Shown here piece after piece: positions 14,312 through 48,349 of a stretch of 64,000 nucleotides of DNA (the stretch's first letter is position 1; every line of letters starts with the position of its first letter). A program made the translations under genes and the position numbers. This stretch comes from Candidatus Latescibacterota bacterium (GTDB lineage Bacteria > Latescibacterota > UBA2968): the NCBI GenBank assembly GCA_965222605.1, contig OZ244960.1, positions 5,952,001 to 6,016,000 of the forward strand. Reading direction: 5' to 3'. The notes beneath the pieces were generated by a model. The model worked only from the letters and a program-made list of their open reading frames with translations, ran no database searches and was not told the DNA's origin.

Positions 14312-16687
14312 GTGATGCCTAAGACACTCATCGGTATTTTTACCAGCGTTGCTGTAATTCTGGCGCTTTGTCCCGATCCCGGCTGGTCCCAGCAGCAGTA
14401 CATGACGCGGGGGCAGCTATGGGTCGAGACCTTCAATGTGGGGCATGGGGCTTTCAGGTATGAGGAACGCAAGATATGCGGCTCGCTCGGGTTGATGTAT
14501 CCGGGATCGTCGGGAGGTGTGGGGGGCGGCTGCGTAGATGAGAACGCATTCATGGATTTCTGGGGGATCCGCCAGGAGAACGACACGGCTTACAACACGA
14601 GCCTGGCGGAGTCGTTTTGGATCCTGTCGAAAGAGGAGAATCCAGTCTTCGCCCCGGAGACCCCTGCCGACCAGCGGCCGGTTCCTCGACACCAAATCTC
14701 GATGAGGGGGCCTTCGTTCGGTCCTCCGAAGGGGATGGGCGGAGGTCCGTTGCACGTCTCGTATCACATGGCACGGGAGAAGGATCTGGGCAGGGAGACG
14801 GGACGCCTCCATACCTACTGGCCCGGTACCCCCTATGTGGATGAGTTTGGTAAACCGACCAGAAACGTATTTATCGCGAATTTTTCACCTGGCGAGTACC
14901 CCACCGACGGCTTTGCCGAGGAGATCCGCATCCGCAGCTTCGGCAACGGCATCGGTCTAACCGGGATCGCCAGGACGATGTTGTGGAGCTACCAGGACTG
15001 GGACGATTTTGTCATTGACGAGATCATCATTACGAACACATCGCGGGATAGCATCGACGATGAAGGCAACATGGTGTTCAACCCGGATGGGACCATCATG
15101 CCCAGGGCCAGCTATGCCGGGACGACCTTCGACGAGGTCTATCTGGTGTTCGAGAACGAGTTCGCGGTCTCCGAGGTCGGGCACTCCTGGATCCATCGGG
15201 CCGACTATGGCGACCTTCATCCTCGTCTTGCCGACGACCACTACAGGTATACGGATGCGCCGAACTACGACGGGCCGTCCGAGTATGCAGGCCGAAAGGT
15301 CTCCTACCAGTGGGACGGGGACCTGCCGCTGAGCTTCTGGAACGATGAAGGTGAGCCGTTCATCTTTGCGGTGGCGCAGAAGAGTCTCGTGGCCGAAGGC
15401 CTGCGCACGGACGGGCAACTCCAGGCATTTCAATACATGGGCTTTGCGCCTGTCGTCTGGATGCCGCCGTTTGTAAACGACCCGGAGGACTACGTGGCGC
15501 CTCAGGGGGATCAACCGTCGATCGTCCACTGGTGGGACTTCCCCGATTTCCCGCGCAATGAGATCCCGCGTCTGCCGTTCATCTCCGACGAGGAGGGCTA
15601 CAACGCCATTGTGAATACCTCTGTACCGATCAGGCCGAATCCGACGGAGATCGGGCGGGTGGCGCATGCCCATGTTTTCGGCCCCTACCGGCTGGAGCCC
15701 GGACAGAAGCTCAAACTCGTTGTGGCCTTTGCCGGCGGCACCGGGGCGGAGTTTGCTGGCCCCGGCGGGGAGCCGATGGATATCTACGAGTGGGCCAGGC
15801 TTGGAAACCAGGACCAGCTCAAAGATGGCGAGAGGGCGCTGTTTGCGCACATTGAGCGGGCCGGGACGGCCTACCGGGCAGGCTACGATCTGCCGGATCC
15901 GCCGCCCGATGTGGAGGTGGCCATAGGGCCCAGTCCGGAGGGCACCAACCGGCTCACCTGGAACGACGACGCAGACGATGCCCTGGACCCCGACTACACC
16001 GGTTCAGAAGCCCAGGACGTGGCCGCTTATCGGGTTTACCGGTCCACGGAGCGACATCTGGGACCATGGGAGATGATTAAGGAGATCCGGGTGAAGGAAT
16101 CCCCCTACCACGATGCGGGCACCTACACCTACGACGACGAGACGTCAGCGGCCGGGTTCGCCTATTGGTATTCGGTTCGATCGGTGGACAGCGGGCATCA
16201 GACGTGGAGTAACGACGACGGAAGCGTAACGCTTGCAGACCTGCCGGAGATCGTGCAGAAGCATGTTAAGGCGGGGCTGGAGAGTGGGAAGGTGTCACCC
16301 GAACAGCGAGGGGTGAACAATACTCTGCTTTCTGTCAGCCCGGTGCTGCCCAGCAGCGTGGAGCGGGATCAGCTTGCCAGAGAAGTACTGGTGGTGCCCA
16401 ACCCGTTCAAGGTGGAAGGGGGTAACCCGCACAATTACAAAGGCAGCGATAAGATCCGGTTTGTGAATATTCCCAGGAAGGCCAGGATTTCCATTTTTTC
16501 AACTTTCGGAGATCTCATTAAGGTGCTGGAGCACGACGATCCCGCCAGGGGCGAGGTCGAGTGGGATCAGATCACGTTGAACCGCTCGGGGAGGATTTCT
16601 ACGGGGATCTACTACTATGTAGTCGAATCCCTGATGCCCGGGGAGGAGGGGAAGAAGCAGACCGGGACATTTGTGGTTATCCGATAA
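14312..16687 (+). CDS. Exported protein with FN3 domain and T9SS-CTD/FlgD-Ig-like C-terminal domain
   Basis: Signal peptide. FN3 pattern LTW...YRVYRS...YWYSV. C-terminal VVPNPF...IRFVNIP...ISIFS..GDLIK...WD...GIYYYVV. Confidence 0.8.
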   Translation: MMPKTLIGIFTSVAVILALCPDPGWSQQQYMTRGQLWVETFNVGHGAFRYEERKICGSLGLMYPGSSGGVGGGCVDENAFMDFWGIRQENDTAYNTSLAESFWILSKEENPVFAPETPADQRPVPRHQISMRGPSFGPPKGMGGGPLHVSYHMAREKDLGRETGRLHTYWPGTPYVDEFGKPTRNVFIANFSPGEYPTDGFAEEIRIRSFGNGIGLTGIARTMLWSYQDWDDFVIDEIIITNTSRDSIDDEGNMVFNPDGTIMPRASYAGTTFDEVYLVFENEFAVSEVGHSWIHRADYGDLHPRLADDHYRYTDAPNYDGPSEYAGRKVSYQWDGDLPLSFWNDEGEPFIFAVAQKSLVAEGLRTDGQLQAFQYMGFAPVVWMPPFVNDPEDYVAPQGDQPSIVHWWDFPDFPRNEIPRLPFISDEEGYNAIVNTSVPIRPNPTEIGRVAHAHVFGPYRLEPGQKLKLVVAFAGGTGAEFAGPGGEPMDIYEWARLGNQDQLKDGERALFAHIERAGTAYRAGYDLPDPPPDVEVAIGPSPEGTNRLTWNDDADDALDPDYTGSEAQDVAAYRVYRSTERHLGPWEMIKEIRVKESPYHDAGTYTYDDETSAAGFAYWYSVRSVDSGHQTWSNDDGSVTLADLPEIVQKHVKAGLESGKVSPEQRGVNNTLLSVSPVLPSSVERDQLAREVLVVPNPFKVEGGNPHNYKGSDKIRFVNIPRKARISIFSTFGDLIKVLEHDDPARGEVEWDQITLNRSGRISTGIYYYVVESLMPGEEGKKQTGTFVVIR

Positions 16688-16708
16688 CGAGGTCAGGAGG
16701 TCAGACAC

Positions 16709-17653
16709 ATGTACAAGAGATTTATTTCAGGAATTTTGATCATTGCCGTTTTCGGGCTGCTGTCTGTCTCTATGGCCGAGGCGGGATTCAAGAAACTGGG
16801 GCTGGCCGGGTTCTCGTTTTTAAAGATTACACAGGCGGCACGGCCCGCTGCGATGGCGGATGCATATACGGCTGTGGTGGACGATGTCAATGCCCTCTAT
16901 TCAAATCCTGCGGGGCTACCGCGCATCCGCGCCAGAGAGTTCACTTTCTCCTACAACAGCTGGATCGCCAACACCAAGATCTATGCGGTCGGTTTGGGGT
17001 GGAAGCTGGGAACACATGCCGTGGGGCTGCATGTGCTCAGTTTTCAACCGGAATCAATCGTGCTCACGACGCCGGAGAAACCGGACGGCAGCCTGGGGCG
17101 GGTGAGTATCGGTTCGGTCGTGGTGGCCGGGACATATGCGATCCAGTTTACGGACAAGTTCTCTTTCGGGGTGCAGGGCAAGTTTGTGCAGGAAGACCTG
17201 TACCTGGACAAGAACCGGACGTTCGATGTGGATCTGGGGATGCTGTTCTACACTGGGTTCAGGAGCTCGCGGATTGCGATGTCGTTGAAGAACCTTGGTC
17301 CGGATGAGACGGTGAACACCGAAAGTTTCTTTTCTCCGATTGTCTTCAATGTCGCAGCGGCGATGGAGGTATATGGGAAGGTAGAAGATCCGGTATATTT
17401 GACAGTGGCAGCGGAAAATGTGTTTGCCATCGATTACGAGCAGCGGTTCCATGCAGGAGGAGAACTGTGGTTGGCTAATACGCTGGCGTTACGGGCGGGG
17501 TATAAGTTCAATTACGATGCGGAGACATTCAGCGTGGGGGTGGGGTTAAAGAAGGCTTTCGGAGATCGGAAGATCGCTGTGGATTTTGCGTACACGGATT
17601 TTGGGGAACTTCTCGATGCCCCGATCCGGCTGACCGTGACCGGGAGTTTTTAA
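16709..17653 (+). CDS. PorV/PorQ family outer-membrane barrel
   Basis: FLKI...ARPAAMADAY.A..DD..ALY.NPAGL, LALRAGY, VDFAY.DFG.L, C-terminal F. Confidence 0.85.
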   Translation: MYKRFISGILIIAVFGLLSVSMAEAGFKKLGLAGFSFLKITQAARPAAMADAYTAVVDDVNALYSNPAGLPRIRAREFTFSYNSWIANTKIYAVGLGWKLGTHAVGLHVLSFQPESIVLTTPEKPDGSLGRVSIGSVVVAGTYAIQFTDKFSFGVQGKFVQEDLYLDKNRTFDVDLGMLFYTGFRSSRIAMSLKNLGPDETVNTESFFSPIVFNVAAAMEVYGKVEDPVYLTVAAENVFAIDYEQRFHAGGELWLANTLALRAGYKFNYDAETFSVGVGLKKAFGDRKIAVDFAYTDFGELLDAPIRLTVTGSF

Positions 17654-17680
17654 CTTACGGTCTTTGGTAAGGGAACTGGG

Positions 17681-17766
17681 ATGGCGGCTCTTGACCTTTC
17701 TGTCGTTGGAGGTGCGATTGAACGGTGCATCGCTCCGGGGGCTGAGAGGCTTTCGGGAGCCGCCAT
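17681..17766 (+). other. Long imperfect intergenic hairpin (86 nt)
   Basis: ATGGCGGCTCTTGA pairs with TCGGGAGCCGCCAT (14 bp, 2 GU). Inner stems CCTTTC/GAGAGG and TTGGAG/CTCCGG. Confidence 0.6.
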
Positions 17767-17787
17767 TGGCTTTAAGGAGACATCCTC

Positions 17788-19245
17788 GTGAGACCACGGA
17801 TGGCGGTTGTCGCCTGTCTTTTGGCCCTCCTTTGGGGCGATGGACGTACAGCCGGTAGCCCGACCGAGGGGGGGTTGCCGGCCGTGAGCACAGGGACGGT
17901 CCGGTTTGTGGTGGATGCCGTGTCGTTTGGGGGGTCCGCCGGTACCGCGCATGTAGAGGTTTATCTCCAGGTCTCCGGCGAAGCGCTGAGGTTTGTCGAA
18001 CAGGAGGATCGTTATCGGGCTGAATTTGAGGTTGGAATGCAGGTCCAGCAGTTCCCCAAAGGCGAGGTAGAGGTTCTTTGCGCCGACGGACAGGCGTTGA
18101 AAGGACGGGTCTGGGAGCGGGGCGTGGAGGTGGCCTCTCGGGATGAAGTAGAAGAAAGCGAATTGGTCGTGATGGAGGTATTTCCCCTTCGGTTTTGGCC
18201 AGGACAGTACCGGATCACCGTACGGGTGAAGGATCTAAACTCAGCCTACGAAGACACCTGTTCCGGCGTTCTGGAGGTGCCCGATTTCGAAGCGGAGCGT
18301 CTGGTAGTCAGTGACATCCAGCTTGCTTATGATATCCACAGAGCCGGACCCAGAGATCGGTTCACGAAGAATCAGATCGGCGTCCTCCCAGCTATTTCCA
18401 GACGATTCTCTCCGAGAGATTCCTTTCTCCAATGCTATTTCGAGGTCTATCACTTCGCGTTCGGTGCCGCTTCAGAGACCGATAGCTTTGACCTGGAGTT
18501 CGTCCTTTTGGACGCGTCGGACAAAGTGGTCAAGCAATACCCGGTTGTGATGCTGAAGAAGCCGGGACCGAGCGGGGTGATCACCAGTAAAGTTATGGGT
18601 GGCGGACTGGACATCGCAGACCTGCCTTCCGGCACATACACACTGAAGGCCCGTATCAGGGACAATCTGAACGGCCAGGAGGCCGAAGCGCTGAGGCAGT
18701 TCTTTATCTTCGAGCCAGGACTTGAATCCCTGAACCTGGCGTCAGATGAAGCGTCGTTAGAGCGTTATTATCGCCAGATCCAGTATATTGCTACAAATGA
18801 GGAATTGAAACGCTATCGGACGCTTGATCCTGAAGAAAAGCTGCTGTTTATTGTCCATTTCTGGATCGAACGCGATCCTACGCCGGACACACCTCAAAAC
18901 GAGTTTCTCGTCGAGCATTTCCGGAGGATCTGGTTTAGCGACGATCACTTTCAGACCCGAACAAGACAGCGAGGTTCCGATACCGATAAAGGGAGGGTTT
19001 ACATCAAATACGGCCCACCCGACGACATCGAGTATCATACGTCCGAGTTTGCCGGAAGGCCGTACGAGGTCTGGACGTATGAGCGGTATGGGTACCGTAA
19101 GTGTGTGTTTCTGGACCTGTCGGGGATCGGTGTCTTCGAACTGGTCCATTCGACCATGCCCGGAGAACTCTACAACCCGCGCTGGAAGGAAGACCACCAG
19201 ACGATGCAACAGGACAGGACCGGCGTGTTTGGACCGAGGCGTTAG
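17788..19245 (+). CDS. GWxTD domain-containing protein
   Basis: SDIQLA, FW..RDPTPDT..NEF..EH.RR, GSDTDKGRVYIKYGPPD, YEVWTY. Confidence 0.85.
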   Translation: MRPRMAVVACLLALLWGDGRTAGSPTEGGLPAVSTGTVRFVVDAVSFGGSAGTAHVEVYLQVSGEALRFVEQEDRYRAEFEVGMQVQQFPKGEVEVLCADGQALKGRVWERGVEVASRDEVEESELVVMEVFPLRFWPGQYRITVRVKDLNSAYEDTCSGVLEVPDFEAERLVVSDIQLAYDIHRAGPRDRFTKNQIGVLPAISRRFSPRDSFLQCYFEVYHFAFGAASETDSFDLEFVLLDASDKVVKQYPVVMLKKPGPSGVITSKVMGGGLDIADLPSGTYTLKARIRDNLNGQEAEALRQFFIFEPGLESLNLASDEASLERYYRQIQYIATNEELKRYRTLDPEEKLLFIVHFWIERDPTPDTPQNEFLVEHFRRIWFSDDHFQTRTRQRGSDTDKGRVYIKYGPPDDIEYHTSEFAGRPYEVWTYERYGYRKCVFLDLSGIGVFELVHSTMPGELYNPRWKEDHQTMQQDRTGVFGPRR

Positions 19246-19370: not shown

Positions 19371-19403
19371 GTAGGGGTGTAGGGCCACGCCCCTTATTTT
19401 TTT
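19371..19403 (+). terminator. GTAG-initial hairpin plus poly-T (terminator-like or REP-like)
   Basis: AGGGGTGT-agggcc-ACGCCCCT followed by TATTTTTTT. Confidence 0.5.
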
Positions 19404-22062
19404 GGGTAAGATGATGAAGAAGGGAGAAGAACAAAAAAAGGTGTCGAAGGACGCTGCTGCAGGGAGCACGGGGACGAATCGGAAGGCACGAGCTATCCCT
19501 TCTGCAGGGCAGAAAGTCCTCTTGGTGTTGTTCGGTTTCCTGCTCATCGCGCTGATGGAGGTCGGGCTGCGGGTTGTGGGGTATGGGAAACCGTCCGAGC
19601 GAGAGGACCCCTTTGTCGGATTTGAGAAGGTTTACCCGCTTTTTAGCGCACGGGAGCTGGCCGGCGGAAAGAGATTCTACGTCACCAATCCGAATAAGCT
19701 GGCCTTCTTCAATGAGCAGGCGTTCCCCACAGAAAAATCGACCGAGACCTTCAGGATCTTTTGCCTTGGTGGATCGACGACGTTTGGAAGGCCGTACGAA
19801 GCGCCGACAGCATTTCCCAAATGGCTGGAGATCGGCCTGAACGGGATGGATGCATCGAGGCGGTTTGAGGTGATCAATGCAGGCGGGATCTCGTACGCCA
19901 GCTACCGGATTGTGAATCTGATTGAAGAGCTGATGCATTACGAGCCAGATCTGTTTGTCGTCTATACCGGCCACAATGAGTTTTTGGAGACGCGGACCTA
20001 CGAGGACATTCTCCAGGCAGATCGTGCGGTTACCAAGGTCCGGACAGTGCTCGGCAGGTTGCGGACTTACGCCCTGGTTCGCCAGGCAGTACTGGGTCTG
20101 AAGGCCTGGGGGAAACAGAGGCGGACGAGGTTTCGGATGAAAGGTGAAGTCGATGCGGCCCTGGACCATGTGGGGGGGGTGGAGCTTTACAGGAGGGATG
20201 AGGATCAGAAACAGGCGATCTTGAGGCACTTTCGGTTCAATCTGGAGCGGATGGTCGATATTGCAAGGGAAAACAGTGTGGAGCTCTTGTTTGTAACGCC
20301 TGTGTCCAGCATCCGGGATTTCTCTCCCTTTAAGTCCGAGCATGCACAAGGTTTGAGCCTTGAGGAGAGAAGGACTTGGGAGAAGCGCTATGGTCAGGGG
20401 ATTTCCCTGTATCGGGCCGGTGACTATGCCGCCGCACTGGAGGCCTTCCGGTTTGCGCTGGAGATCGATCCCGAATACGCCGAGCTGCATTACGAAGTCG
20501 CCAAGTGTTATGAGGGCCTGGGCCAACACGAAAAGGCCAGAGTTCACTACGTTCAGGCCAGGGATCTGGACGTCTGTCCTTTGAGGGCGATCGGCCAGAT
20601 CGAGGCCATTGTGCGGGACGTTGTTAGAGCGCGCGAGGTTGCTCTGGTGGACCTCGTGCCTGTGTTTGAGGCCCGCAGCGACCACGGTCTTCTGGGCAAA
20701 GAATGGTTTCTGGACCATGTCCATCCGACTGTAGTGGGACACCAAGTGATTGCGGATGAGATCGTTTCGCAACTGGTCAACCGTGGCGTTGTCGCTCCGG
20801 GTGCGGGGTGGAACGCGGCGAAAAGGGCAGCGCTCTATAAGGAGGTGTTCGACTCCTTGGATGGCGGATATTTCTCCTTAAAAAATTTGAATCTCGGCAA
20901 GGTTCTGGCGTGGGCCGAGAAGTACAGAGAAGCGCTGGATCCCCTGGAAGCGGCTACAAGGCAACTGCCGGACGACCCGGAGATTCCCCGCCTTCTGGGC
21001 CAGGTTTACGCCGCATTGGGATACCATCGAAAGGCAGCCGCAGCATACCGGCTGGCTGTTGGCCAGAGGGACGACGACTCCAGGCTGTACAACGATCTGG
21101 GGAATGTATATGTCGCGCAGGGGGAGTACGGGGAGGCTGTATCGGCGTATCAGGCCGCAATCCGGCTCAGACCGGATGACGCCGAGGTTCACTACAACCT
21201 TGGAAATGCTTTTGTCGCGCAGGGGGAGTACGGGGAGGCTGTATCGGCGTATCAGGCCGCAATCCGGCTCAGACCGGATGATCTGGATATCTGGAGTAAC
21301 CTGGGGAATGCCTATGGGGCACAGGGGAATTATACGGACGCGGTCGAGGCGTATCGCAGCGCGCTTCAGATCGATCCGAATGACGCCGGGACGCACTACA
21401 ATCTGGGGCGATTATACGCGAATCGAGAGGCCTATCGGGAGGCGGAAGAGGCGTACCGTATCGCGTTGAGGCTGAGCCGTGCGAACCCGGATGCCGATTC
21501 AGGTTTCACCGCTGATATCTATCTCAACCTGGGGCTGGTTCACCGGGCCCGGGGGGAGTACGAGCAGGCGATTTCTGCGTATCGGTCGGCGTTGGAGCTC
21601 CGTCCGGACGACCCACGGGCATACAACAACCTGGGAAATGTGTATAGTGCTCGAGAAGAGTACGGCAAGGCAGTAGCGGTGTATCAGTCGGCGTTGAAAT
21701 TGGATCCCGACGATCTCAAGGCACATTTTAACCTCGGTTTTATCTACGGCGTACGGAAAGAGTATGCAAAGGCTGCGGCCGAGTATGAAAAGGTTGTGAA
21801 GATCGACCCAGACGACCTCCAGGCACACTACCGTCTCGCCTTTGCATACAGCGCCCAGGGAGAGTACGGTCGGGCCATTGCATACTACGAAGAGGTCGTG
21901 AAGAAAGATCCAAAGTTCCTTCAGGCCTATGGAAATCTGGGGATCGCCTACCTTCAGAAGGGAGACAGACGGAGGGCGGTCGCTGCGTTCGAGAAGGTGC
22001 TGGAGATCGATCCGGAAAACGGTCCGGCAAAGGAATATCTGCGGCGCCTGAAAGGACGGTGA
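19402..22062 (+). CDS. Membrane-anchored SGNH/GDSL-like hydrolase with a long TPR array (start codon uncertain)
   Basis: TM helix, then LGGSTT, INAG, GHNE, DHVHP blocks, then more than 10 TPRs of the YNNLGNVY type. Confidence 0.88.
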   Translation: MGKMMKKGEEQKKVSKDAAAGSTGTNRKARAIPSAGQKVLLVLFGFLLIALMEVGLRVVGYGKPSEREDPFVGFEKVYPLFSARELAGGKRFYVTNPNKLAFFNEQAFPTEKSTETFRIFCLGGSTTFGRPYEAPTAFPKWLEIGLNGMDASRRFEVINAGGISYASYRIVNLIEELMHYEPDLFVVYTGHNEFLETRTYEDILQADRAVTKVRTVLGRLRTYALVRQAVLGLKAWGKQRRTRFRMKGEVDAALDHVGGVELYRRDEDQKQAILRHFRFNLERMVDIARENSVELLFVTPVSSIRDFSPFKSEHAQGLSLEERRTWEKRYGQGISLYRAGDYAAALEAFRFALEIDPEYAELHYEVAKCYEGLGQHEKARVHYVQARDLDVCPLRAIGQIEAIVRDVVRAREVALVDLVPVFEARSDHGLLGKEWFLDHVHPTVVGHQVIADEIVSQLVNRGVVAPGAGWNAAKRAALYKEVFDSLDGGYFSLKNLNLGKVLAWAEKYREALDPLEAATRQLPDDPEIPRLLGQVYAALGYHRKAAAAYRLAVGQRDDDSRLYNDLGNVYVAQGEYGEAVSAYQAAIRLRPDDAEVHYNLGNAFVAQGEYGEAVSAYQAAIRLRPDDLDIWSNLGNAYGAQGNYTDAVEAYRSALQIDPNDAGTHYNLGRLYANREAYREAEEAYRIALRLSRANPDADSGFTADIYLNLGLVHRARGEYEQAISAYRSALELRPDDPRAYNNLGNVYSAREEYGKAVAVYQSALKLDPDDLKAHFNLGFIYGVRKEYAKAAAEYEKVVKIDPDDLQAHYRLAFAYSAQGEYGRAIAYYEEVVKKDPKFLQAYGNLGIAYLQKGDRRRAVAAFEKVLEIDPENGPAKEYLRRLKGR
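21111..21281 (+). repeat. Exact 69-bp repeat with 102-bp (one TPR) period
   Basis: 21111-21179 is identical to 21213-21281. Confidence 0.85.
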
Positions 22063-22136
22063 GGTGTCGTGCTACGATTTTGCGGAGGTCAAGGTGGAAG
22101 GGGATACCGTGGAACCGAACAATAGGGAGGTGCATT

Positions 22137-23462
22137 ATGCTGCCCGAAGAGATTGTCAATATACCCCCGGCGCTGACGGAAGAGACGTTTGACGAGTTGT
22201 TCGAGGCCTGCCGGCCGCGTGCAAGCGAGGAGCGGTGGACTGAGGTGCCCTGGATCGGAGAGTTATGGGATGGGCGGCAGAAGGCCGCACGGGAGGAGAA
22301 GCCGCTGTTCATCTGGGCGATGAACGGGCATCCTCTGGGATGCGTTTGAAACAATGGGGTAACGGGCCGTGCGCTCGTCTTCAGCGATCCGAGAGCAATT
22401 CAACTACTGAATGATCATTTCGTCACGGTCGCGGTGGATAATACGCGACTCCAGCGGCAGGATGACGATGAGGGACGGTTTTTGCGATTGATTGCATGGC
22501 AGGGCCGGTACGGGTACTCATTCGATGAGGCGCTGGCGAAGGTGAATGATATAGACCACGGGATGAATCACCAGGGACTTTATGTAACGACGACCGAAGG
22601 AGAAGTCCTGGGCACGCGGAACAGGTGCGGTCCACATGGCATATTGCAAGCCAGCGGCAGCATGAGCACCAACCCGGACTTGCTGGTAGAGATGCTGGGC
22701 AAAGCACTGAAAAACTGGGAGGTCCGAAAGACTCAGAGAGAAGCTTATAAAATCGGCGGGTTGGATAGGGAGGAAGCATTCATATGGGAGTATCCGGAGG
22801 ACGGCCTGGTGCTGCATCTGGGGTGCCGGGATCTGCCCCGGCGGGTGGATTTGCGGCCTGAGAACTGGAGACGTGAGGCGCACAATCAGGACTATGTCTG
22901 GTTCCGGCGAGAGGAGATGCTGTCGATCGTGCCGCCCGGCGTGTCGGCAGGCGATACGTTTTCGATGCCGGAGGGTTTGACCCGGCGGCTGGTCCGGTAC
23001 CACCTGGTGGATTCTGTTGGAGGGCAGCCCTCTCACTGGTCGCCCGAGGCACTTCGGGATGTGGAGATGAGGCTGGAAGTGACGGGTGTGACGCCGAAGC
23101 GGGTGGATTTGACGGTTTCCGGGCAGGCACGTTTGTATGAAGAGGGGGATTGGTGCGCGCATCCGCCGTCTTCTTCGGCCTACCGTATGGGAGAGATGTG
23201 TTGCTTGATCCGCGAGCGTGGATTTGATGCCTCCTTGCTGGGATACCTCTGCTTCGACCGTCGGACGGAGCGGTTTTCCCGGTTCGATCTGGTTGGGGTG
23301 GGTACCCGATGGGGGGGTACGAATGTGAGTGGGCGCCGGGAAGACATTGAGCCTTCGCCAATGGGGATCGCGATGACGCCTGCGGATATGGAGTCGCGGG
23401 ACCAGACGCCGCCGCATGCGAGCCAGAGGCGGGGCAACCTGGAGCGCTATTTTGACGCGTAA
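22137..23462 (+). CDS. Putative selenoprotein with thioredoxin-like N-terminal domain and CxU motif (TGA 22347-22349 read as Sec), about 441 aa
   Basis: GGAGG RBS before ATG 22137. The ORFs ending at 22349 and starting at 22434 share a frame with a stop-free linker. It reads GHPLGCV-U-NNGVTGRALVFSDP...LN.HFV.VAVD. The TGA is conserved in the paralog. Confidence 0.85.
22362..22378 (+). promoter_or_regulatory. Candidate bacterial SECIS hairpin
   Basis: ACGGGC-cgtgc-GCTCGT starts after a 12-nt spacer from the TGA, has a G-containing loop, and is identical in the paralog. Confidence 0.7.
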
Positions 23463-23475
23463 AGGAGCGGAGACG

Positions 23476-23631
23476 ATGCAGTATGAACAGCGACCGAGAA
23501 TCGGCATTCCCTGCGCCCATGTGGAACCGGAGCAGGGAAAGTTTCTGCCCATCTTCTCCGCGTGCCGGGGAGTACAGGTGCTCAACGTGGCGGCGGCGCA
23601 GTCCCGGTTGTTTTCTGGGAAAAGAGCGTGA
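23476..23631 (+). pseudogene. 51-aa ORF, possible N-terminal remnant of a peptidase C26/PuuD-like gene
   Basis: Strong AAGGAG RBS, MQYEQRPRIGIPC start, and a stop overlapping the next ATG (TGATG). Confidence 0.4.
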
Positions 23632-25631
23632 TGTCGGATGCGAAGCCTGCACTGGGTGAGCAGCAGCCGGTACAGGATAAGACAGCTATGGTTTTGGAAC
23701 CGGAGACCAGGCCTGGGTTGACGGTGCGGTCTGTGGTTCTCGGTCTGCTATTTACGTGTCTGATGGACGTGTGGATCATCTACTCGGACTACTACGTCCA
23801 CTCCTCCAGGTTCAACCTCACGCACTTTCCAATCGCGCTGCTGTCCGTGTTCCTGTTTTTGACCTTTGTGGTCAATCCCATCCTCAAGACGATCGCCCCG
23901 GGGCAATTGTTCTCGTCCCGGGAGATCCTGGTGATGTTGGCGATGGGATACACGGGGGCGGCGGTGCCGGCGTCAGGGCTGACGGGGATTCTGCTGGGGG
24001 TGATCGCCCCGCCCTATTACTATGCCACGCCCGAAAACCAGTGGGCGGAGTATCTGCACGAGCATATTCCCGGATGGATTGCGCCCACCGACGCAAAAGC
24101 GATGGGGTGGTTCTGGGAAGGGATGCCGGAAGGTGCGAGTATCCCCTGGGATGTCTGGTTTGTGTCCCTGTTCTGGTGGTCGTTGTTCGTGGGCGCCGTG
24201 TTTTTTGTTTCGGCCTGTCTGGTCGTGATCATGCGGAAGCAGTGGGTGGAGCACGAGCGTCTGTTCTTTCCACTGGCTGCTGTGCCGATTGAGATGGTGC
24301 AGCAGGAAGCCGGACAACGGTTGCCGCTGATTACAAAAGAGTCCCGATTCTGGCAGGGGTTCGGGTTTGCCCTGTTTATTCCGCTGTGGAATTTCTGGGG
24401 ATACTTCTGGCCGCTTTTTCCCCAGATTCCGTTCCAGGCGAACCTGGTCAACCGCCACTGGCGTCCCTTCGGACGCCTGTTCCCGAGGATCAATCCGGAG
24501 GTGGATTTTTACGTGATCGGGTTTGCGTATTTCGCAAACCTGGATGTGCTGTTCAGTGTGTGGCTTTTTGGGCTGCTGGGCTTTGCACAGACAGGAATCT
24601 TGAACCGGATCGGTTACCCGATCGCCAGGGAGGGATACGACGCCACTGACTGGGAGTGTCTGGGAGCGCTCTTCGTGGTGGTGCTCTGGGGGCTGTGGGT
24701 AAGCAGAGCGCATCTCAGGCAGGTGGCCCGGGCGGCGTTCCAGCGGGGGGAGAAATCCGGAGACAGGGGAGGTGAGATCCTGTCCTACCGGACGGCCGCG
24801 ATCGGGTTCCTGCTGGGATCGGCCTTTATCCTCTGCTGGCTCTACCAGGCGGGAATAGAGCCCTGGGTGCTACTGGTATTTTTCCCGGCGTTGATGCTGG
24901 TCTATCTGGGCATGACGCGATTTGTGGCAGAGACCGGCTTTGTATTTGCCAACGCACCTGTCAGCGAAGACGCGTTTATCCTCAAGGTGCTGGGGTCCAG
25001 GGTTCTGGCCCCCTCGACCATTACCGCCCTGGCTTTTGAACGGGCGCTTTACTCCTACGGCAAAGCCCTTTTTACGCCTGCGTTGGCCCATGCCGCAAAG
25101 CTGGGAGAGGTGATCGGGGGGGACCGGCGCAAGCTGTTCGGGGCCATCGGGCTGACGCTGGTTGTGGGGCTCGTTGTATCTGTCGGGTTGACCCTCTACT
25201 TGGGATATACCACCGGCGCGAGCAATTTTAACGATACGCCAATGTTACGGGGGCTGGATGGGTTCTACCGTGCGGTATCCCTGATCAAAAGTCCTGAAGA
25301 ACCGGCGTGGCCTCAGATTGGATTCTTCGGCGCAGGTACAGCGTTGGCGGTTTTTCTGTTCTTTTTGCGGTCGCGCTTTCCCTGGTGGCCGGTGCATCCG
25401 ATCGGTCTGATCGTCGGCGGCAGTTACTGGGCCCACTTCTACCTGACGTCGATCTTCCTGACGTGGTTCTGCAAGCTGGTGATCCTGAAGACTGGGGGAG
25501 CCGTGCTCTTCAGGAAGTTCCGGCCGTTTTTCTTAGGGCTGCTGGTGGGATATACGCTGGGGATTTTTATTATGTTTCTCATGGATATAATCTGGTTCTC
25601 CGGTTCGGGGCACCGGGTGCATACGTGGTGA
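23631..25631 (+). CDS. DUF6785/DUF6784-like polytopic membrane protein (putative transporter)
   Basis: Many TM segments. Motifs PYYYATPENQW, RKQWVEHERL.FPL, DVLFSVW, WWPVHPIG, PFFLGLLVG. Confidence 0.75.
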   Translation: MSDAKPALGEQQPVQDKTAMVLEPETRPGLTVRSVVLGLLFTCLMDVWIIYSDYYVHSSRFNLTHFPIALLSVFLFLTFVVNPILKTIAPGQLFSSREILVMLAMGYTGAAVPASGLTGILLGVIAPPYYYATPENQWAEYLHEHIPGWIAPTDAKAMGWFWEGMPEGASIPWDVWFVSLFWWSLFVGAVFFVSACLVVIMRKQWVEHERLFFPLAAVPIEMVQQEAGQRLPLITKESRFWQGFGFALFIPLWNFWGYFWPLFPQIPFQANLVNRHWRPFGRLFPRINPEVDFYVIGFAYFANLDVLFSVWLFGLLGFAQTGILNRIGYPIAREGYDATDWECLGALFVVVLWGLWVSRAHLRQVARAAFQRGEKSGDRGGEILSYRTAAIGFLLGSAFILCWLYQAGIEPWVLLVFFPALMLVYLGMTRFVAETGFVFANAPVSEDAFILKVLGSRVLAPSTITALAFERALYSYGKALFTPALAHAAKLGEVIGGDRRKLFGAIGLTLVVGLVVSVGLTLYLGYTTGASNFNDTPMLRGLDGFYRAVSLIKSPEEPAWPQIGFFGAGTALAVFLFFLRSRFPWWPVHPIGLIVGGSYWAHFYLTSIFLTWFCKLVILKTGGAVLFRKFRPFFLGLLVGYTLGIFIMFLMDIIWFSGSGHRVHTW

Positions 25632-40971: not shown

Positions 40972-42984
40972 ATGGCCATTCAGCTACGAGAGGACTGCCA
41001 AGAGAGAACCAGATCCATGACGCGCTCCGTGCTTCTCGGCCTCGGCCTGGTCGTCGGGATTGATGTGCTGGCTATCTATGTGAAATACCTGCTTCCCCGA
41101 GGCCCGATGATGGCCTACAGCCATGTGCCTATGGTCGTGCTAATCGGCTTTGTCCTGATGCTCCTGGCCGGAGCAGTTGTTGCGCGTGGAACGAGGCGGG
41201 CACTGTCGCCCTCGGAATGGCATACCATTCTGGCGATGGGAATGGTCGGGGCAGCGGTCCTGTTCTACGGGTATTCCGGCTACCTTATTTCCTACATGGG
41301 CGCGCCGCACTACTTCGCCACGGGTGAAAACGAATGGGCCAATTATCTGCACCCCTATATTGCAGAGTGGCTGTTTCCCGAAAACGAAGAGAAAGCGGTG
41401 ACCTGGTTCTGGGAGGGACTACCCAGGGGCGCGCAATTGCCGTGGGGGAAGTGGATCTTACCCCTGTTCTGGTGGGGCGGATTGACCGTTGCCGCTTTTG
41501 TCCTCTATGCCTGCGTCACCACCATCTTCCGCAAACAGTGGATACACTATGAAAAAGTGGCCTTTCCGGCTATGGCTCCGCTGGTCGAAATGGCCTCCAA
41601 TCCGGGAGATGGAAAGGGATTTCTCCCGGCGTTCACGCGGAATGCGCTCTTCTGGCTCGGCTTCTGGCTCGTCTTCGGGATGATCGCCTGGAACTGTGTC
41701 AACTACTTCATCCCCACCTTTCCCCAATTCCCCATCTACGCGCAAGGCAGTGCGGCACACCAGGGAGGGCGATGGATCTGGATCGATCGAAATTTTCCGC
41801 CTATCTACGGCATCCTCGATATTTTTACTATCTGCTTTTCCTATTTCGCAACTGTGGAAGTTCTGTTCAGCATCTGGTTTTTCGATCTGCTCTTTATCCT
41901 CGAAGGGGGCCTGCTCAACCGGATCGGATTTGTGGCTACTTCGCCCTATTACTACTCGGGGGTCTGCTTCTGGCAGACGAAGGGAGCCTTCTTCTTTCTG
42001 GTGCTTTCTACCATCTGGGCGGCGCGTTCGCAGATCCGGGATGTGTTTTGGAAGGCACTTGACTCCCAGGCCCCGGTTGACGATAGGGACGAACCGCTCT
42101 CCTACCGCACGGCTGTTGCAGGGTTGGCTATCAGCCTGATCTACATCTGGGTCTGGTTGATCCGGATCGGATTTGATCCTTTTCAGGCGGTACTTCTGAT
42201 CTTCGGGGCGATCTTCACCTATTTGGGATTGGCGAGAATCCTGTCCGATACAGGGTTGCCTTATGTCAACGCCCCCGTTTGGGGAGGATGGGGCCTGGTA
42301 AGCCCCTTTCTGGATGGAGGATCCATCCACGCGAACACCCGGGTAGCTGCACGGACCTCGGGCGTCCTGTTATCCAATTTCAAGGGATCCTTTTTACCCG
42401 CTCTCAGCCAGGCCGGACGGGTGGCTGAGGGCGTGCAGGTGGAAAGCCGGCGACAGCTCACAGGCGCGGTTTTTCTGGCTTTTGTGACGAGTGTGGTCAC
42501 ATGCGTGGTGGTGACACTTTATCTGGGTTATCGACACGGAGCACTGAACTTTACAGGTTGGGTGGCGATCGGATCCGGCAATGCGCACTACGATCGCACC
42601 GCGAAATCCGTCAGATCCTTTCTGATGCAGGATACCGATGCACCGATCTTCATAGAACATCCTGACCAGTTCGCCTTTTTTGTGCTCGGCGCGCTGGCTA
42701 CCGCGGCGCTCTTTCTTCTCAGGCGTCGGTTCCCGTGGTGGCCGCTTCATCCGGCGGGCCTCGCCATTTCAGGCTCTTTTCTGGCTCGACGGACGAGTTT
42801 GACGGTTCTTGTAGCCTGGCTGATCAAGTGGATTACCGTAAAGGTAGGGGGAGCATCCTCCTACCAGAAATCCCGGCCCCTGTTTCTGGGCCTGCTCGTC
42901 GGCTATGTCATGGGTGTCGTGTTATCGCTCTTCATTGACCTGATCTGGTTTCCCGAGCAGGGCCACATGGTCCATCGACTTTAG
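40972..42984 (+). CDS. DUF6785/DUF6784-like polytopic membrane protein, paralog of 23631-25631
   Basis: PHYFATGENEW, RKQWIHYEKV.FP, EVLFSIW, WWPLHP.G, PLFLGLLVG. Confidence 0.75.
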   Translation: MAIQLREDCQERTRSMTRSVLLGLGLVVGIDVLAIYVKYLLPRGPMMAYSHVPMVVLIGFVLMLLAGAVVARGTRRALSPSEWHTILAMGMVGAAVLFYGYSGYLISYMGAPHYFATGENEWANYLHPYIAEWLFPENEEKAVTWFWEGLPRGAQLPWGKWILPLFWWGGLTVAAFVLYACVTTIFRKQWIHYEKVAFPAMAPLVEMASNPGDGKGFLPAFTRNALFWLGFWLVFGMIAWNCVNYFIPTFPQFPIYAQGSAAHQGGRWIWIDRNFPPIYGILDIFTICFSYFATVEVLFSIWFFDLLFILEGGLLNRIGFVATSPYYYSGVCFWQTKGAFFFLVLSTIWAARSQIRDVFWKALDSQAPVDDRDEPLSYRTAVAGLAISLIYIWVWLIRIGFDPFQAVLLIFGAIFTYLGLARILSDTGLPYVNAPVWGGWGLVSPFLDGGSIHANTRVAARTSGVLLSNFKGSFLPALSQAGRVAEGVQVESRRQLTGAVFLAFVTSVVTCVVVTLYLGYRHGALNFTGWVAIGSGNAHYDRTAKSVRSFLMQDTDAPIFIEHPDQFAFFVLGALATAALFLLRRRFPWWPLHPAGLAISGSFLARRTSLTVLVAWLIKWITVKVGGASSYQKSRPLFLGLLVGYVMGVVLSLFIDLIWFPEQGHMVHRL

Positions 42985-45124: not shown

Positions 45125-46405
45125 ATGATGCTCAAAGAGATAACAAATTTTGCTCCGGCATTGACGGACGAGACATTTGCAGAGTTGTTCGAAGCCTGTC
45201 GGCCCCAAAGAGAACGCTGGACAGATATCCCCTGGATCGGGGAACTCTGGGAGGGACGACAGAAGGCGGCGCGCGAGGAGAAGCCATTGTTCATCTGGGC
45301 GATGAACGGCCACCCTCTGGGTTGTACGTGAAATAATGGGGTTACGGGCCGTGCGCTCGTTTTTTCAGATCCGCGCGTGATCGCGCTTGTGAACGAACGG
45401 TTTATCCCGGTGGCTGTGAACAATTCCCGGTTGCAGCGACAAGCCGATGAAGAGGGCCGATTTTTGCGCTTGATCGCCTGGCAGGGGCGGTACGGGTATT
45501 CTTTTGAGGAAGCTCAGGCCCGGTTGGAGGCTATCGATCACGGGCTGAATCATCAAGGTCTATATGTAACAACGACAGAGGGAGAGGTGTTGGGCAGCCG
45601 CAACAGACTGTTTCCGGGTGGCAAGGTCCATGTTCAGAGTGTGGGTAGCGATCCAGACCGGTTTTTGTGGATGTTGAGACGGGCGCTGGTAAACTGGGAG
45701 AACCGCAAGACTCAGCGCGAGGCATTGGAAGTCGAAGATCTGGCGTATCGGGATCCCACATTTAGCTGGACGGCGTATCCGGAAGATGGGCTGGTTTTGC
45801 ATCTGGGTGTTAGGGACCTGCCCCGGCTGGTAGATACGCGGCCTCCGGGAATGAAGCGAGAGGCGCACAATCAGGATTACGTCTGGTTCCGACGGGAAGA
45901 GATGCTGTCTATGGTTCCACCGGATACGGCTGTGGGCGATGTTATTCCCATGCCCGAGGGGTTGGTCAGGCGGCTGGTGCGTTATCATCTGGCGGATTAT
46001 GTTCGGGGGGAAACGTCTTCGTGGTCGTCCGAGGCGATTCGGGATGCGTCTATGACGTTGACAGTGACTGATAAGACGCCAGAATGGGTGGATTTAAGGC
46101 TTTCCGGATCCGCGCGGTTGTTCGCGGAGGGGAGTTGGTACGAGGGTGCGTGTCAAAATCGGGGGCTGGATGCATCGCTTCTGGGATATTTGCGTTTTGA
46201 TCGGTCTGAGGAACGGTTCGTGCGATTCGATGTGGTGGCGGTGGGATCGCGGTGGGGCGGCACGGATTACAATGTACGGCAGGACGATTTGGAGCCTGCG
46301 CCGATCGGGATTGCGATGACGATTGCCGGGTCTGAGGCGAAGGATCGCACAGCGCCGCATGCGTGCCAGAGTCGAGGTGGTCTGAAATGGTATTTTAATG
46401 CGTGA
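45125..46405 (+). CDS. Putative selenoprotein paralog with CxU motif (TGA 45329-45331 read as Sec), about 426 aa
   Basis: GGAGG RBS before ATG 45125. The split ORFs are in frame and read GHPLGCT-U-NNGVTGRALVFSDPRVIALVNERFIPVAVN. Confidence 0.85.
45344..45360 (+). promoter_or_regulatory. Candidate bacterial SECIS hairpin
   Basis: ACGGGC-cgtgc-GCTCGT with the same 12-nt spacing from the TGA as in the paralog. Confidence 0.7.
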
Positions 46406-46444
46406 TTTGATAGCCGGGATGTGTTTTGTCGCATTTTGGGAGGG

Positions 46445-47374
46445 ATGATGATACGGTGCGAACGCAGAGCAGAACTCGAGATCGAAACACCGCACCTTTG
46501 CGCGACGGTGCGGACAGAGGGGTACGTGAGCGGGATCAAAAGCAGATCGTTTGTAGATAAACGGACGGGCGCGACCGATCTGGGTTCGGGCCTGCACATT
46601 ATGGACTTTCTGCTCGTGCCGGGGTGGGGAGATGCAGAACAAAATCGGATCTACGACGGGAATCTGCCCAAGCGCGTGGTGGAAGGTCCCCAGATCTGTA
46701 CGCGGGCACGGCGGCTGGACTATGAGGTTATCCGGGGCGAAGCGTTTCTGGCCGTGCGGCAGTGGTTTACGTTCACGAGCGTGGTTGAAGGTTTCCAGGC
46801 CGGGTCGCGGTGGGAGCAGACGTTGCTATTTCTGCCAGATACGCGGTACGTGCTTTCGTGCGAACGGATCACCTGCGTCAATAGTGCGGACTGTCTGTTT
46901 TACCGGATCGACATGCCCGGCCACCTGCACCACAAGGGTGGAGACACTTTTACGCGGATTTACCTGAGCTACCACGGGTACATCGAGTCTTCAGAATTCC
47001 TGACGGATTTCCCCCCGGACGAAGGGTTCCTCTATCAGCGCAAAGATCACGATATTCCCGATCGGATTATCCGGGCGTATGAACAACGGAAAGAGGGCGG
47101 CACGGCCGTGTGGCTGGCGGGGATGACGCTGGACCCAGCGGCGGTGTACGAGGCGTGGTGCCACCAGCGGGGTTACGTCTGTTTCATCCAGGAACTGCAC
47201 GGTCGGAAGGTGACGGCAGGGGACGCGATCGGGGCCGCCTATGTGGTGGGATATTTCGATTCGGTGGCTGAGATGAATGCGGTCTATGACCAGTATCGAG
47301 GGGTGCGCTCGATTGCGGTAGATGAAAAGGGATACACCCTGCTGAATGAGGTAGAGAAAGCCGATGGGATTTAG
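46445..47374 (+). CDS. Hypothetical protein (beta-rich)
   Basis: GGGAGGG RBS before ATG 46445. Long ORF just downstream of selenoprotein 2 with no motif I recognise. Confidence 0.7.
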   Translation: MMIRCERRAELEIETPHLCATVRTEGYVSGIKSRSFVDKRTGATDLGSGLHIMDFLLVPGWGDAEQNRIYDGNLPKRVVEGPQICTRARRLDYEVIRGEAFLAVRQWFTFTSVVEGFQAGSRWEQTLLFLPDTRYVLSCERITCVNSADCLFYRIDMPGHLHHKGGDTFTRIYLSYHGYIESSEFLTDFPPDEGFLYQRKDHDIPDRIIRAYEQRKEGGTAVWLAGMTLDPAAVYEAWCHQRGYVCFIQELHGRKVTAGDAIGAAYVVGYFDSVAEMNAVYDQYRGVRSIAVDEKGYTLLNEVEKADGI

Positions 47375-47480: not shown

Positions 47481-47690
47481 CTTTTCCTCCATAGTTGAAA
47501 CGCCTGATAATCCCACAAATAGCCAATCGCTTCCGCGATCTACTTCAATTGTCCCTCTATCCAATCCATCCACTTTACAAGCTGTGAAAGGTATATAGAT
47601 ACCCTCTCGTTTGAAGAGTGTGTCAGGTGGATGTACAACTCTTCGGTCTCATCGAGAAAGTCGGTCCACTGTGGATATGACGTCTTTAAC
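47400..47690. repeat. Degenerate ~290-bp direct repeat, copy 1
   Basis: Aligns with 51609-51893, sharing blocks such as aatcgcttccgcgatctacttc and ctctatccaatccatccactt. Confidence 0.85.
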
Positions 47691-48349
47691 ACCGGTATTG
47701 TGTCAATGCCTTTAAGCGAACGAAAGCGTCCTTGTGCCATCAAGAGACAAGCCCCGCCTAATACGCTAAGGCGTGCCAACTTGCGGAGTTTTAGTCGTGT
47801 CTCATCGGGGAGAGAAAAGTCTGTTTTATTTTCCTTTTCTAATCTCGCTACATATCGAGTAAGATCCAAAGCTGGCTGAAAATATTCTCGCACCCACGAT
47901 GGAGTGAGAATCGGTAATTCGAACTCTCCTGTAAGATCACGTCCCCAAACAAGTGTGGCATCATAATGTAAACGAAATCCAAATGCTTGATGCCGTGACC
48001 GCAAGTCTTTGTTCGCCCCCGGTTGTCTGCCCTGCAAGACATCATCAATTGAACGGGGTAGGCGGAGTCCGGACACACCGGGCAACTCGCGATTAAGTTT
48101 TTCCTGCGTTTCTCTGCACCATTGGTGGTCAGTTTTTCTTAACGGTCCCTCAATGAAGGGATACAAATCAAGATCGGAAATGCCTGGAATGGCTTCATTT
48201 CTGTGAACACTGCCCCATACATAGATTGAAATGAGTCTCTCTGCAAAGTGGGCATGGTACTCCAAAATATGGTGCTGAATAAGTTGCACGAAGTATTGAT
48301 CGTCAAATAGATGTAAATTTTTGTATTTATCAGAGGTATTCAGTTTCAT
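47540..48349 (-). CDS. Pol-beta-superfamily nucleotidyltransferase domain protein
   Basis: SIYVWGS...GISDLDL (GS...DxD) plus a helical C-terminal part. Confidence 0.7.
   Translation of the reverse strand: MKLNTSDKYKNLHLFDDQYFVQLIQHHILEYHAHFAERLISIYVWGSVHRNEAIPGISDLDLYPFIEGPLRKTDHQWCRETQEKLNRELPGVSGLRLPRSIDDVLQGRQPGANKDLRSRHQAFGFRLHYDATLVWGRDLTGEFELPILTPSWVREYFQPALDLTRYVARLEKENKTDFSLPDETRLKLRKLARLSVLGGACLLMAQGRFRSLKGIDTIPVLKTSYPQWTDFLDETEELYIHLTHSSNERVSIYLSQLVKWMDWIEGQLK

Follow-up and report, generated by a model that had tools for sequence, protein, structure and literature searches.

The stretch analysed here (the window) comprises 64,000 nucleotides (nt) of the genome of a Candidatus Latescibacterota bacterium, positions 5,952,001 to 6,016,000 of contig OZ244960.1 (assembly GCA_965222605.1), and our subject is the gene at 22137-23462 of it, called copy 1 below; a paralogue, copy 2, lies in the same window. 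We consider it highly likely that this region is one gene for a 441-residue thioredoxin-fold selenoprotein, the UGA of which is decoded through SelB and tRNA-Sec together with a hairpin of the selenocysteine insertion sequence (SECIS) type, and that the product acts as a selenol/thiol oxidoreductase. The internal TGA (22347-22349) very probably encodes selenocysteine (Sec), and four independent computational lines support its decoding as such. A preliminary description, made from the letters of the window and a list of its open reading frames (ORFs), had proposed a selenoprotein of about 441 residues at this site, and each of the computational tests suggested there came out in its favour.

One reading frame across an internal TGA

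Direct translation gave a frame from ATG 22137 to TAA 23460-23462 that is interrupted only by TGA 22347-22349. The ORF listing divides it into two pieces in a common frame, 22059..22349 and 22434..23462, and both the listing and the translation thus confirmed the initial observation of two same-frame ORFs parted by nothing but this TGA. The read-through product, of 441 residues, contains ...KPLFIWAMNGHPLGCVUNNGVTGRALVFSDP..., and the matches of relatives in a six-frame search span residues 1-441 of it. The earliest start codon 3' of the TGA is GTG 22434, 28 codons on, and the bases preceding it (tcgtcacggtcgcg) hold no Shine-Dalgarno-like run, which agrees with the earlier statement that the downstream part has no start backed by a ribosome-binding site. 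Coordinates of all features are collected in Table 1.

Table 1. Features of the copy 1 gene and its predicted product, the paralogue, and the Sec machinery of the same genome. Positions refer to the window unless marked as genome positions.
Feature	Position	Strand	Basis or remark
Selenoprotein coding sequence, copy 1 (predicted)	22137..23462	+	441 residues plus TAA; one open frame with a single internal TGA
Shine-Dalgarno-like AGGGAGG	22124..22130	+	6 nt ahead of ATG 22137; read directly
Cys69 codon TGC, C of the C-x-U motif	22341..22343	+	invariant in 10-sequence alignment A1
In-frame TGA, selenocysteine 71 (predicted)	22347..22349	+	column is TGA in 30/30 aligned relatives and 78/79 loci
SECIS-like hairpin	22355..22383	+	RNAalifold and covariation
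Thioredoxin-fold domain, residues 30-200 (predicted)	22224..22736	+	AlphaFold2 (AF2) model, VIA-align
C-terminal beta-rich domain, about residues 215-430 (predicted)	22779..23426	+	no confident known fold
Paralogue, copy 2	45125..46405	+	67% identical; GGAGG before ATG; one TGA inside
selA	genome, selA+selB at 1084528-1087787		576 bits; adjoins selB
selB	genome, with selA		388 bits; adjoins selA
selD	genome, G000:C1:3613020-3614142		365 bits; one internal TGA
tRNA-Sec	genome, about 100 nt downstream of selD		73 bits

Conservation of the TGA

The six-frame search covered 61 related genomes including that of the window and gave matches in 46 of them. All 46 rows that span the column, that is, run from query residue 17 or lower to 426 or higher, contain exactly one TGA and no other stop, at identities from 100% down to 37%. 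A further 17 rows miss the column: two C-terminal fragments (G009, with no stop, and G054:C258, with one TAA), 14 weak matches in which residues ~34-124 align with ORFs of some 750-850 residues, and an end piece of 46 residues. The G009 locus (L051, G009:C1:4609637-4610290), from a genome of the same genus, has only a stop-free C-terminal half, residues 211-441, and is possibly a remnant. In the 30 relatives that were aligned, the TGA occupies a single alignment column without exception, and the protein is strongly conserved on either side of it.

When a 10-sequence profile was run more widely, against one genome of each species, 79 loci resulted, titled Latescibacterota, Gemmatimonadota, Poribacteria, Chloroflexota, Planctomycetota (Pirellulaceae, Isosphaeraceae and Phycisphaerae) and, once, a Bacillota metagenome-assembled genome (MAG). 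The column is TGA in 78 of these loci, and the 79th (L134) ends at a contig end before reaching it. This conservation is far beyond chance. The preliminary description had named TAA or TAG, frame shifts and independent genes among homologues as counter-evidence; at this site no homologue has a TAA or TAG, shifts frame or has a conserved start of its own. We also compared base variability over 17 codons upstream and 17 downstream of the TGA in 81 distinct sequences. The mean base entropy per codon position was 0.49/0.20/1.09 upstream and 0.63/0.50/1.06 downstream, and because the 3-periodicity is the same, both sides are translated in frame.

That the region holds two separate genes, or a decaying pseudogene, in which the TGA is a true stop is very improbable and already contradicted by the data. 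Public gene callers do annotate the downstream piece only, and a first-pass RNA fold was not unusually stable. Conservation down to 37% identity nevertheless extends over the frame, the TGA and the 70 codons ahead of it; codon periodicity is present in that upstream part, and homologues with TGC at the site are single full-length ORFs. There is also no conserved start, as databases call the downstream piece from varying profile positions, 75 or higher.

Selenocysteine machinery and the genetic code

The genome of the window has the complete Sec machinery, with all four components exceeding curated cut-offs (Table 1). The sel genes on which the preliminary description had made its proposal depend, selA, selB, selD and the gene for tRNA-Sec, are thus all present. 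The selD gene is itself a selenoprotein gene (SCGGUASK). Of five genomes of other phyla with the TGA form, all five have selA over the cut-off and four have selB over it, the one miss being a fragmented Chloroflexota MAG.

TGA is an ordinary terminal stop in 20 of the 30 aligned family genes, and the code is therefore not reassigned. A reassigned code that gives the internal TGA the meaning of a standard amino acid (Trp or Gly) is accordingly extremely improbable: W stands at the column in a single database protein, P0059, and is presumably due to a gene caller with a TGA=W table, whereas each spanning match has exactly one TGA, the Sec machinery is complete, and the alternative residue found at the column at the DNA level is Cys.

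A SECIS-like hairpin downstream of the TGA

The putative hairpin has a 6-base-pair (bp) upper stem, 22362-22367 paired with 22373-22378, which starts 12 nt after the TGA and carries an apical loop CGUGC (22368-22372), and a weaker lower stem (22355-22359 / 22379-22383). The alignment used comprised 77 distinct segments of 60 nt, in which the TGA occupies columns 4-6. RNAalifold, run unguided, found the 6-bp stem at columns 19-24 / 30-35, and compensatory changes, in which both sides are altered and pairing is kept, occur in 6 of 6 upper-stem pairs. Columns 25, 26 and 28 (C25, G26, G28) do not vary, and U makes up at least 90% of column 27, which gives a CGUGN loop. For an 11-bp version including the lower stem, 81% of the cells pair, compared with 36-56% when the partners are slid, and the covariation score of 0.368 exceeds both the shuffled value of 0.222 (reached by 0 of 500 shuffles) and the 0.10-0.16 of the slid versions. 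The residues encoded by the stem vary in step (VTGRALV, VVGRALT, VVRRERT, VAGRALA, IAGRESV, LLDRESS). The geometry resembles that of the hairpin of selD in the same genome (7 bp, GGU loop); the loop starts at +21 from the UGA in copy 1, and that of selD lies at +23 from its own UGA.

RNA-library contigs

The stretch, whole or in part, is present in 20 public runs from 10 studies; six of the runs are RNA libraries, and four of these (X15-X18) were compared. In X15 and X16, two libraries of the same study, contigs extend from 22066 past the TGA; they have no difference listed at 22347-22349 and an in-frame 3-nt insertion near 22651-22654. X17 and X18 belong to two further studies; the former has short contigs on either side of the TGA and the latter two contigs, downstream only, from 22865. 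Such contigs cannot show expression level or ends, and they weakly support expression of the copy 1 gene. The RNA-library contigs of a roughly 98% identical strain have 218 extra letters at 22063-22066, between the gene for a TPR protein and the copy 1 start, and near 23549-23589 such contigs of a related strain have 366 other letters inserted.

Residues at the Sec column

Cysteine homologues, which together with TGA forms would make the Cys/TGA pairs that the preliminary description had proposed as a test, do exist. A word search restricted to residues 30-125 found nine proteins (P0122-P0130, 371-379 residues) that cover 96-99% of this region, and all five sequences read among them have GCVCNNG. 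In metagenome contigs with relatives of P0122, the column is TGC in two loci (L135 and L136) and TGA in five (L137-L141), the latter being 45-53% identical to P0122 and 45-47% identical to L135 and L136. Summed over three partly overlapping locus sets, the tally of TGA versus TGC is 129 versus 2. Among the 15 database representatives spanning the column, C occurs five times, A, S and D twice each, and G, N, E and R once each; three proteins (P0183, P0202, P0253) have a CTC motif.

In four proteins (P0139, P0155, P0181 and P0183; Cys, Ala, Ser or Asp at the column) sequence reading places the module behind a Ser/Thr-kinase-like region and a hydrophobic segment. These kinase-fused Sec-less members suggest that the two-domain module may also serve as an extracytoplasmic sensor domain.

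Predicted structure and kinship to thioredoxin-fold proteins

An AF2 model built from 10 sequences reached a mean predicted local distance difference test score (pLDDT) of 79 and a predicted TM-score (pTM) of 0.80, and its residues 30-200 have a predicted thioredoxin fold with the beta-alpha-beta-alpha-beta-beta-alpha core, as the preliminary description had expected when it proposed a structure prediction. With this part, VIA-align matched thioredoxin-fold chains at Z 12.5 to 6.5, namely 3f9u_B, a DsbD-type C-terminal domain (Z 12.5), 2lst (11.4), AGR3 (3ph9_B, 11.0), DsbH (2ju5, 9.5) and a Thioredox_DsbH protein (7tkv, 9.1). Foldseek with the whole model gave a best E of 1e-3, to 3f9u, and no match for the C-terminal half. 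The model thus supports a DsbD-gamma/DsbH-like thioredoxin fold for residues 30-200.

The motif C69-V-U71 has one residue between Cys and the predicted Sec, and in the model it lies in the loop before helix 1, three residues ahead of helix 74-81. The preliminary description had put the stop at the position of the redox motif. This stood as far as the loop is concerned, since the motif falls in the loop that carries CxxC in related proteins; the spacing is C-x-U, not the canonical CxxC type, and C69-V-U71 does not form a CxxC-type motif at the N-terminus of helix 1.

The closest known type is that of PF03190, Thioredoxin_7 and DsbD-gamma. The weak 34-124 matches are to proteins such as that of L055, which is Pfam Thioredox_DsbH (DUF255) at E 1e-73 and comes from the same genome as copy 1; the copy 1 protein shows weak and tentative sequence kinship to it (tblastn E 1e-6; hhalign probability 54%, E 1.3e-4); hmmscan of the copy 1 protein gave no match to PF03190 or PF13899 at E <= 1. 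The N-terminal fold would be the same, the redox motif is likewise in the loop before helix 1, and a KP-F...LVFSDP...VD pattern is common to the PF03190 protein and copy 1. They differ in that copy 1 has C-x-U after an extra GHPLG loop instead of C-x-x-C, in that the partner domain is predicted to be beta in copy 1 and an (alpha/alpha)6-like region in DUF255 proteins, and in that Sec, unlike in the PF03190 type, replaces Cys in nearly all close family members.

The large C-terminal domain, described initially as uncharacterised, is beta-rich in the models and has no confident relative in the PDB. Modelled alone from 60 sequences, it reached a pLDDT of 90.8. The best VIA-align hit had Z 6.5, to outer-membrane barrels, which is within the stated background of the tool; Foldseek with the domain alone gave a best E of 9.5e-3, with PsbO rows at probability 0.7 but a TM of only 0.3; and a sequence profile search of the PDB with A1 gave one chance match (E 1.2).

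Size, annotation and cataloguing of the family

Searching 1.84 billion cluster representatives (50% identity clusters) with a profile gave 2960 clusters at E <= 1e-3, 1396 at E <= 1e-10 and 384 at E <= 1e-30. In 12 of the best 150 representatives the best stretch begins within profile positions 6-23, and three more (P0148, P0228, P0253) contain the column on sequence reading. The remaining 135 start at position 75 or higher, just past the Sec column (position 71), and P0161, the sole one read among them, is truncated. In the same way, 118 of the 120 listed database matches cover at most 83% of the query, and they are called 'hypothetical protein' where named; the preliminary description had expected standard gene callers to split such a gene. 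To judge from these sequences, such entries begin after the predicted Sec column and lack the first 70-100 residues of the putative catalytic domain. One protein without the N-terminus (P0099) is fused to PQQ-like repeats.

Family proteins are about 370-470 residues long. By a crude hydropathy window, not a dedicated predictor, the N-terminus is hydrophobic and resembles a signal peptide in 15 of 23 inspected TGA loci (Pirellulaceae, Phycisphaerae, Isosphaeraceae and three Poribacteria), but not in the other 8 nor, by eye, in either copy in the window.

The copy 1 protein has no match in Pfam or NCBIfam (release of June 2026) at E <= 1. A recent inventory lists 119 selenoprotein families or subfamilies, each with a Pfam, NCBIfam, cd or PTHR identifier, mostly the first two (PMC13188914, Table 1), and none of them fits, because there were no Pfam or NCBIfam matches at that threshold; families with only cd or PTHR identifiers are set apart by their listed motifs (UxxC, UGC, UxxS, GxUC/CU, CxxU, UGH) as opposed to C-x-U-N-N-G. 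The C-x-U selenoproteins of the inventory have the same Cys-Sec spacing, and Sec.1 is also thioredoxin-like, but none of their models matches the copy 1 protein at E <= 1 and the copy 1 family is two-domain. The Trx7/PDZ domain-containing selenoprotein (NF041199) likewise has a Thioredoxin_7-like domain fused to a second domain; it differs in its CxxU motif and PDZ partner, and the NF041199 model does not match the copy 1 protein. GOS_A, from the 2008 Global Ocean Sampling (GOS) study, comprised 2 Sec and 155 Cys sequences (PMC2398784), a ratio opposite to that of the copy 1 family; in the accessible part of that source the two are set apart by these counts only. According to the parts of the reports available, BSepDB was built from known families (PMC13326102) and deep-Sep may, as its authors say, miss families without abundant Cys homologues (PMC12013277). 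The literature considered also included PMC9402790 and PMC8318568. A full-text search of open papers for selenoprotein with Latescibacter* or Poribacteria gave nothing on the copy 1 family. In the ESM Atlas, the downstream ORF had 30 matches in a single set with no common Pfam family, and the three matches shown are named only 'hypothetical' or 'uncharacterized'.

It is distinctly unlikely that the family is real but already described under another name. GOS_A has no accession in the 2026 table and our view of the literature is limited to open papers, which leaves some room for this idea; on the other side stand the empty Pfam and NCBIfam searches, the identifiers carried by all 119 inventory families, the Cys-dominated and hence opposite pattern of GOS_A as far as the accessible part of its source goes, the truncated and unnamed homologues, and the text and ESM Atlas searches, which gave no named family. 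By the tests with Pfam, NCBIfam and the 2026 inventory the family appears uncatalogued, and the sequence comparisons point to a genuine new selenoprotein family of the thioredoxin-fold kind.

Proposed mechanism and points for and against it

From the predicted fold and the motif we infer a selenol/thiol oxidoreductase function, with the following roles for Cys69, Sec71 and the beta domain. SelB and tRNA-Sec would decode UGA 22347-22349 as Sec, directed by the short SECIS hairpin inside the coding sequence 12 nt downstream. The active-site loop G-H-P-L-G-C69-V-U71-N-N-G would lie just ahead of helix 1, where Sec71 would be the attacking nucleophile and form a selenenylsulfide with Cys69; a thiol reductant would recycle this bond, and the beta domain may hold the substrate or a partner. 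Since the family has both cytoplasmic members, as in the window, and signal-peptide-bearing ones in Planctomycetota and Poribacteria, the substrate is probably not a protein restricted to a single compartment but a small molecule or a general oxidant.

Several observations speak against this account or narrow it. At the RNA level, the lower five pairs of the hairpin are weak (columns 12/40 pair in 12 of 74 rows), the 81-nt single-sequence fold (22340-22420) is no stabler than shuffles (z 0.02), and an Rfam scan of 21500-24000 at E <= 10 returned only two chance matches, to eukaryotic long non-coding RNA families. Both Cys-form loci, L135 and L136, keep a similar hairpin, and its conservation may therefore partly reflect protein constraints; the support for the hairpin is its covariation. 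The long contigs of the RNA libraries (13-19 kb) may be DNA carry-over. In the AF2 model, pLDDT is below 50 at residues 70-76, which form the Sec loop, and the register relative to CxxC conflicts between methods, as BLAST places U71 on the second Cys of CYWC and hhalign places C69 on the first Cys with U71 in a gap; because of this disagreement we limit the claim to a C-x-U within the CxxC loop. Four of the 78 TGA loci (L086, L129, L130, L132) have Ala or Gly in place of Cys69, so that a selenenylsulfide with Cys69 would not be universal. Ten of the 15 column-spanning database representatives have neither Cys nor Sec, from which it follows that the scaffold probably also serves non-redox roles. 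Finally, synteny with the window neighbours is seen only within close relatives, and a Pfam scan of 132 flanking ORFs of 35 loci found no partner common across phyla; with neighbours not conserved across phyla, the gene context gives no reliable functional or substrate clue.

A non-redox role is the main alternative to this account. In it the protein is a real selenoprotein whose C-x-U binds or carries a metal, a metalloid or selenium/sulfur (Hg, As, Cu, persulfide), with the beta domain as carrier or sensor. Such a role is unlikely: CxU and CU motifs do occur in predicted metal-related selenoproteins (table of PMC13188914), Sec/Cys-less members are fused behind a Ser/Thr kinase and transmembrane segments in the manner of ligand-sensing domains (P0155, P0181, P0183, P0139), and the existence of exported and cytoplasmic forms would suit it, but the closest solved folds are thiol-disulfide oxidoreductase domains (DsbD-gamma-like, DsbH, thioredoxins) and no metal-handling genes recur among the 132 neighbouring ORFs.

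Paralogue and gene neighbourhood

Copy 2 has its Sec TGA at 45329-45331, followed by a stem at 45344-45349 / 45355-45360 with the same loop, CGUGC (45350-45354). Related genomes hold orthologues of both copies. Copy 1 is preceded by a gene for a TPR protein (19402-22062) and followed by one for a DUF6785/DUF6784 protein (23562-25631, +). A second DUF6785/DUF6784 gene (40972-42984, +) lies 2 kb from copy 2, and another adjoins L083. All 61 related genomes have DUF6785, most of them with some 20 matches or more, so that the adjacency may be chance, and we dropped this ubiquitous, multi-copy family as a functional clue. Some neighbours recur locally: PALP upstream in L073, L075, L077 and L082, RraB-like plus BON in Pirellulaceae, GFO_IDH_MocA in several loci, and thioredoxin plus DinB in L120 and L121.

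A 51-codon ORF (23476-23631, +) with an AAGGAG-like site directly follows the selenoprotein stop; its only match is a sub-threshold one to Peptidase_C26 (E 7e-4, 19.8 bits against a cut-off of 20.5). Neither this ORF nor those at 46421-47374 and 47540-48349 had anything over the cut-off in Pfam or NCBIfam. The region 28870-51539 is a gene run typical of sulfated-glycan breakdown, with genes for MFS, asparaginase_2, xylose-isomerase-like TIM barrel, GFO/IDH/MocA, four Amidohydro_2, heparinase II/III-like, DegT aminotransferase and FG-GAP/ASPIC proteins and two sulfatases. Sulfatases stand near copy 2 and near some orthologues; the taxa concerned are rich in sulfatases, and we claim no functional link. 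Upstream of copy 1, in the region 14312-19245 (+), are an outer-membrane protein of the PorV/PorQ family (type IX secretion-like; 16709-17653, +; NF033709, 160 bits), a GWxTD-domain protein (17788-19245, +) and, ahead of the PorV/PorQ gene, a 791-residue ORF with only faint CHU_C/PorZ hints.

Significance

Mis-annotation of selenoproteins is systematic, and pipelines for their discovery usually depend on abundant Cys homologues. The escape of this family from detection would follow from the dominance of Sec over Cys within it. We give about even chances to the broader proposal that it is among the larger uncatalogued selenoprotein families (2960 clusters), with near-obligatory Sec in its core clade, cytoplasmic and exported forms, a distribution over sponge-associated and marine polysaccharide-degrading phyla, and a beta domain without a solved relative. 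Its recognition would correct thousands of gene models in Latescibacterota, Poribacteria, Gemmatimonadota, Chloroflexota and Planctomycetota, and would enlarge the known selenoproteomes of sponge symbionts and marine heterotrophs. It would also offer a two-domain enzyme for biochemical study. If the proposal is true, the residues just after Sec would be shaped jointly by the protein and the SECIS RNA, a clean and testable example of co-evolution between an RNA element and an active-site stretch of the protein encoded by the same bases; and if Sec has been retained because Cys is inadequate, the family may carry out a chemistry not yet described for thioredoxin-fold proteins.

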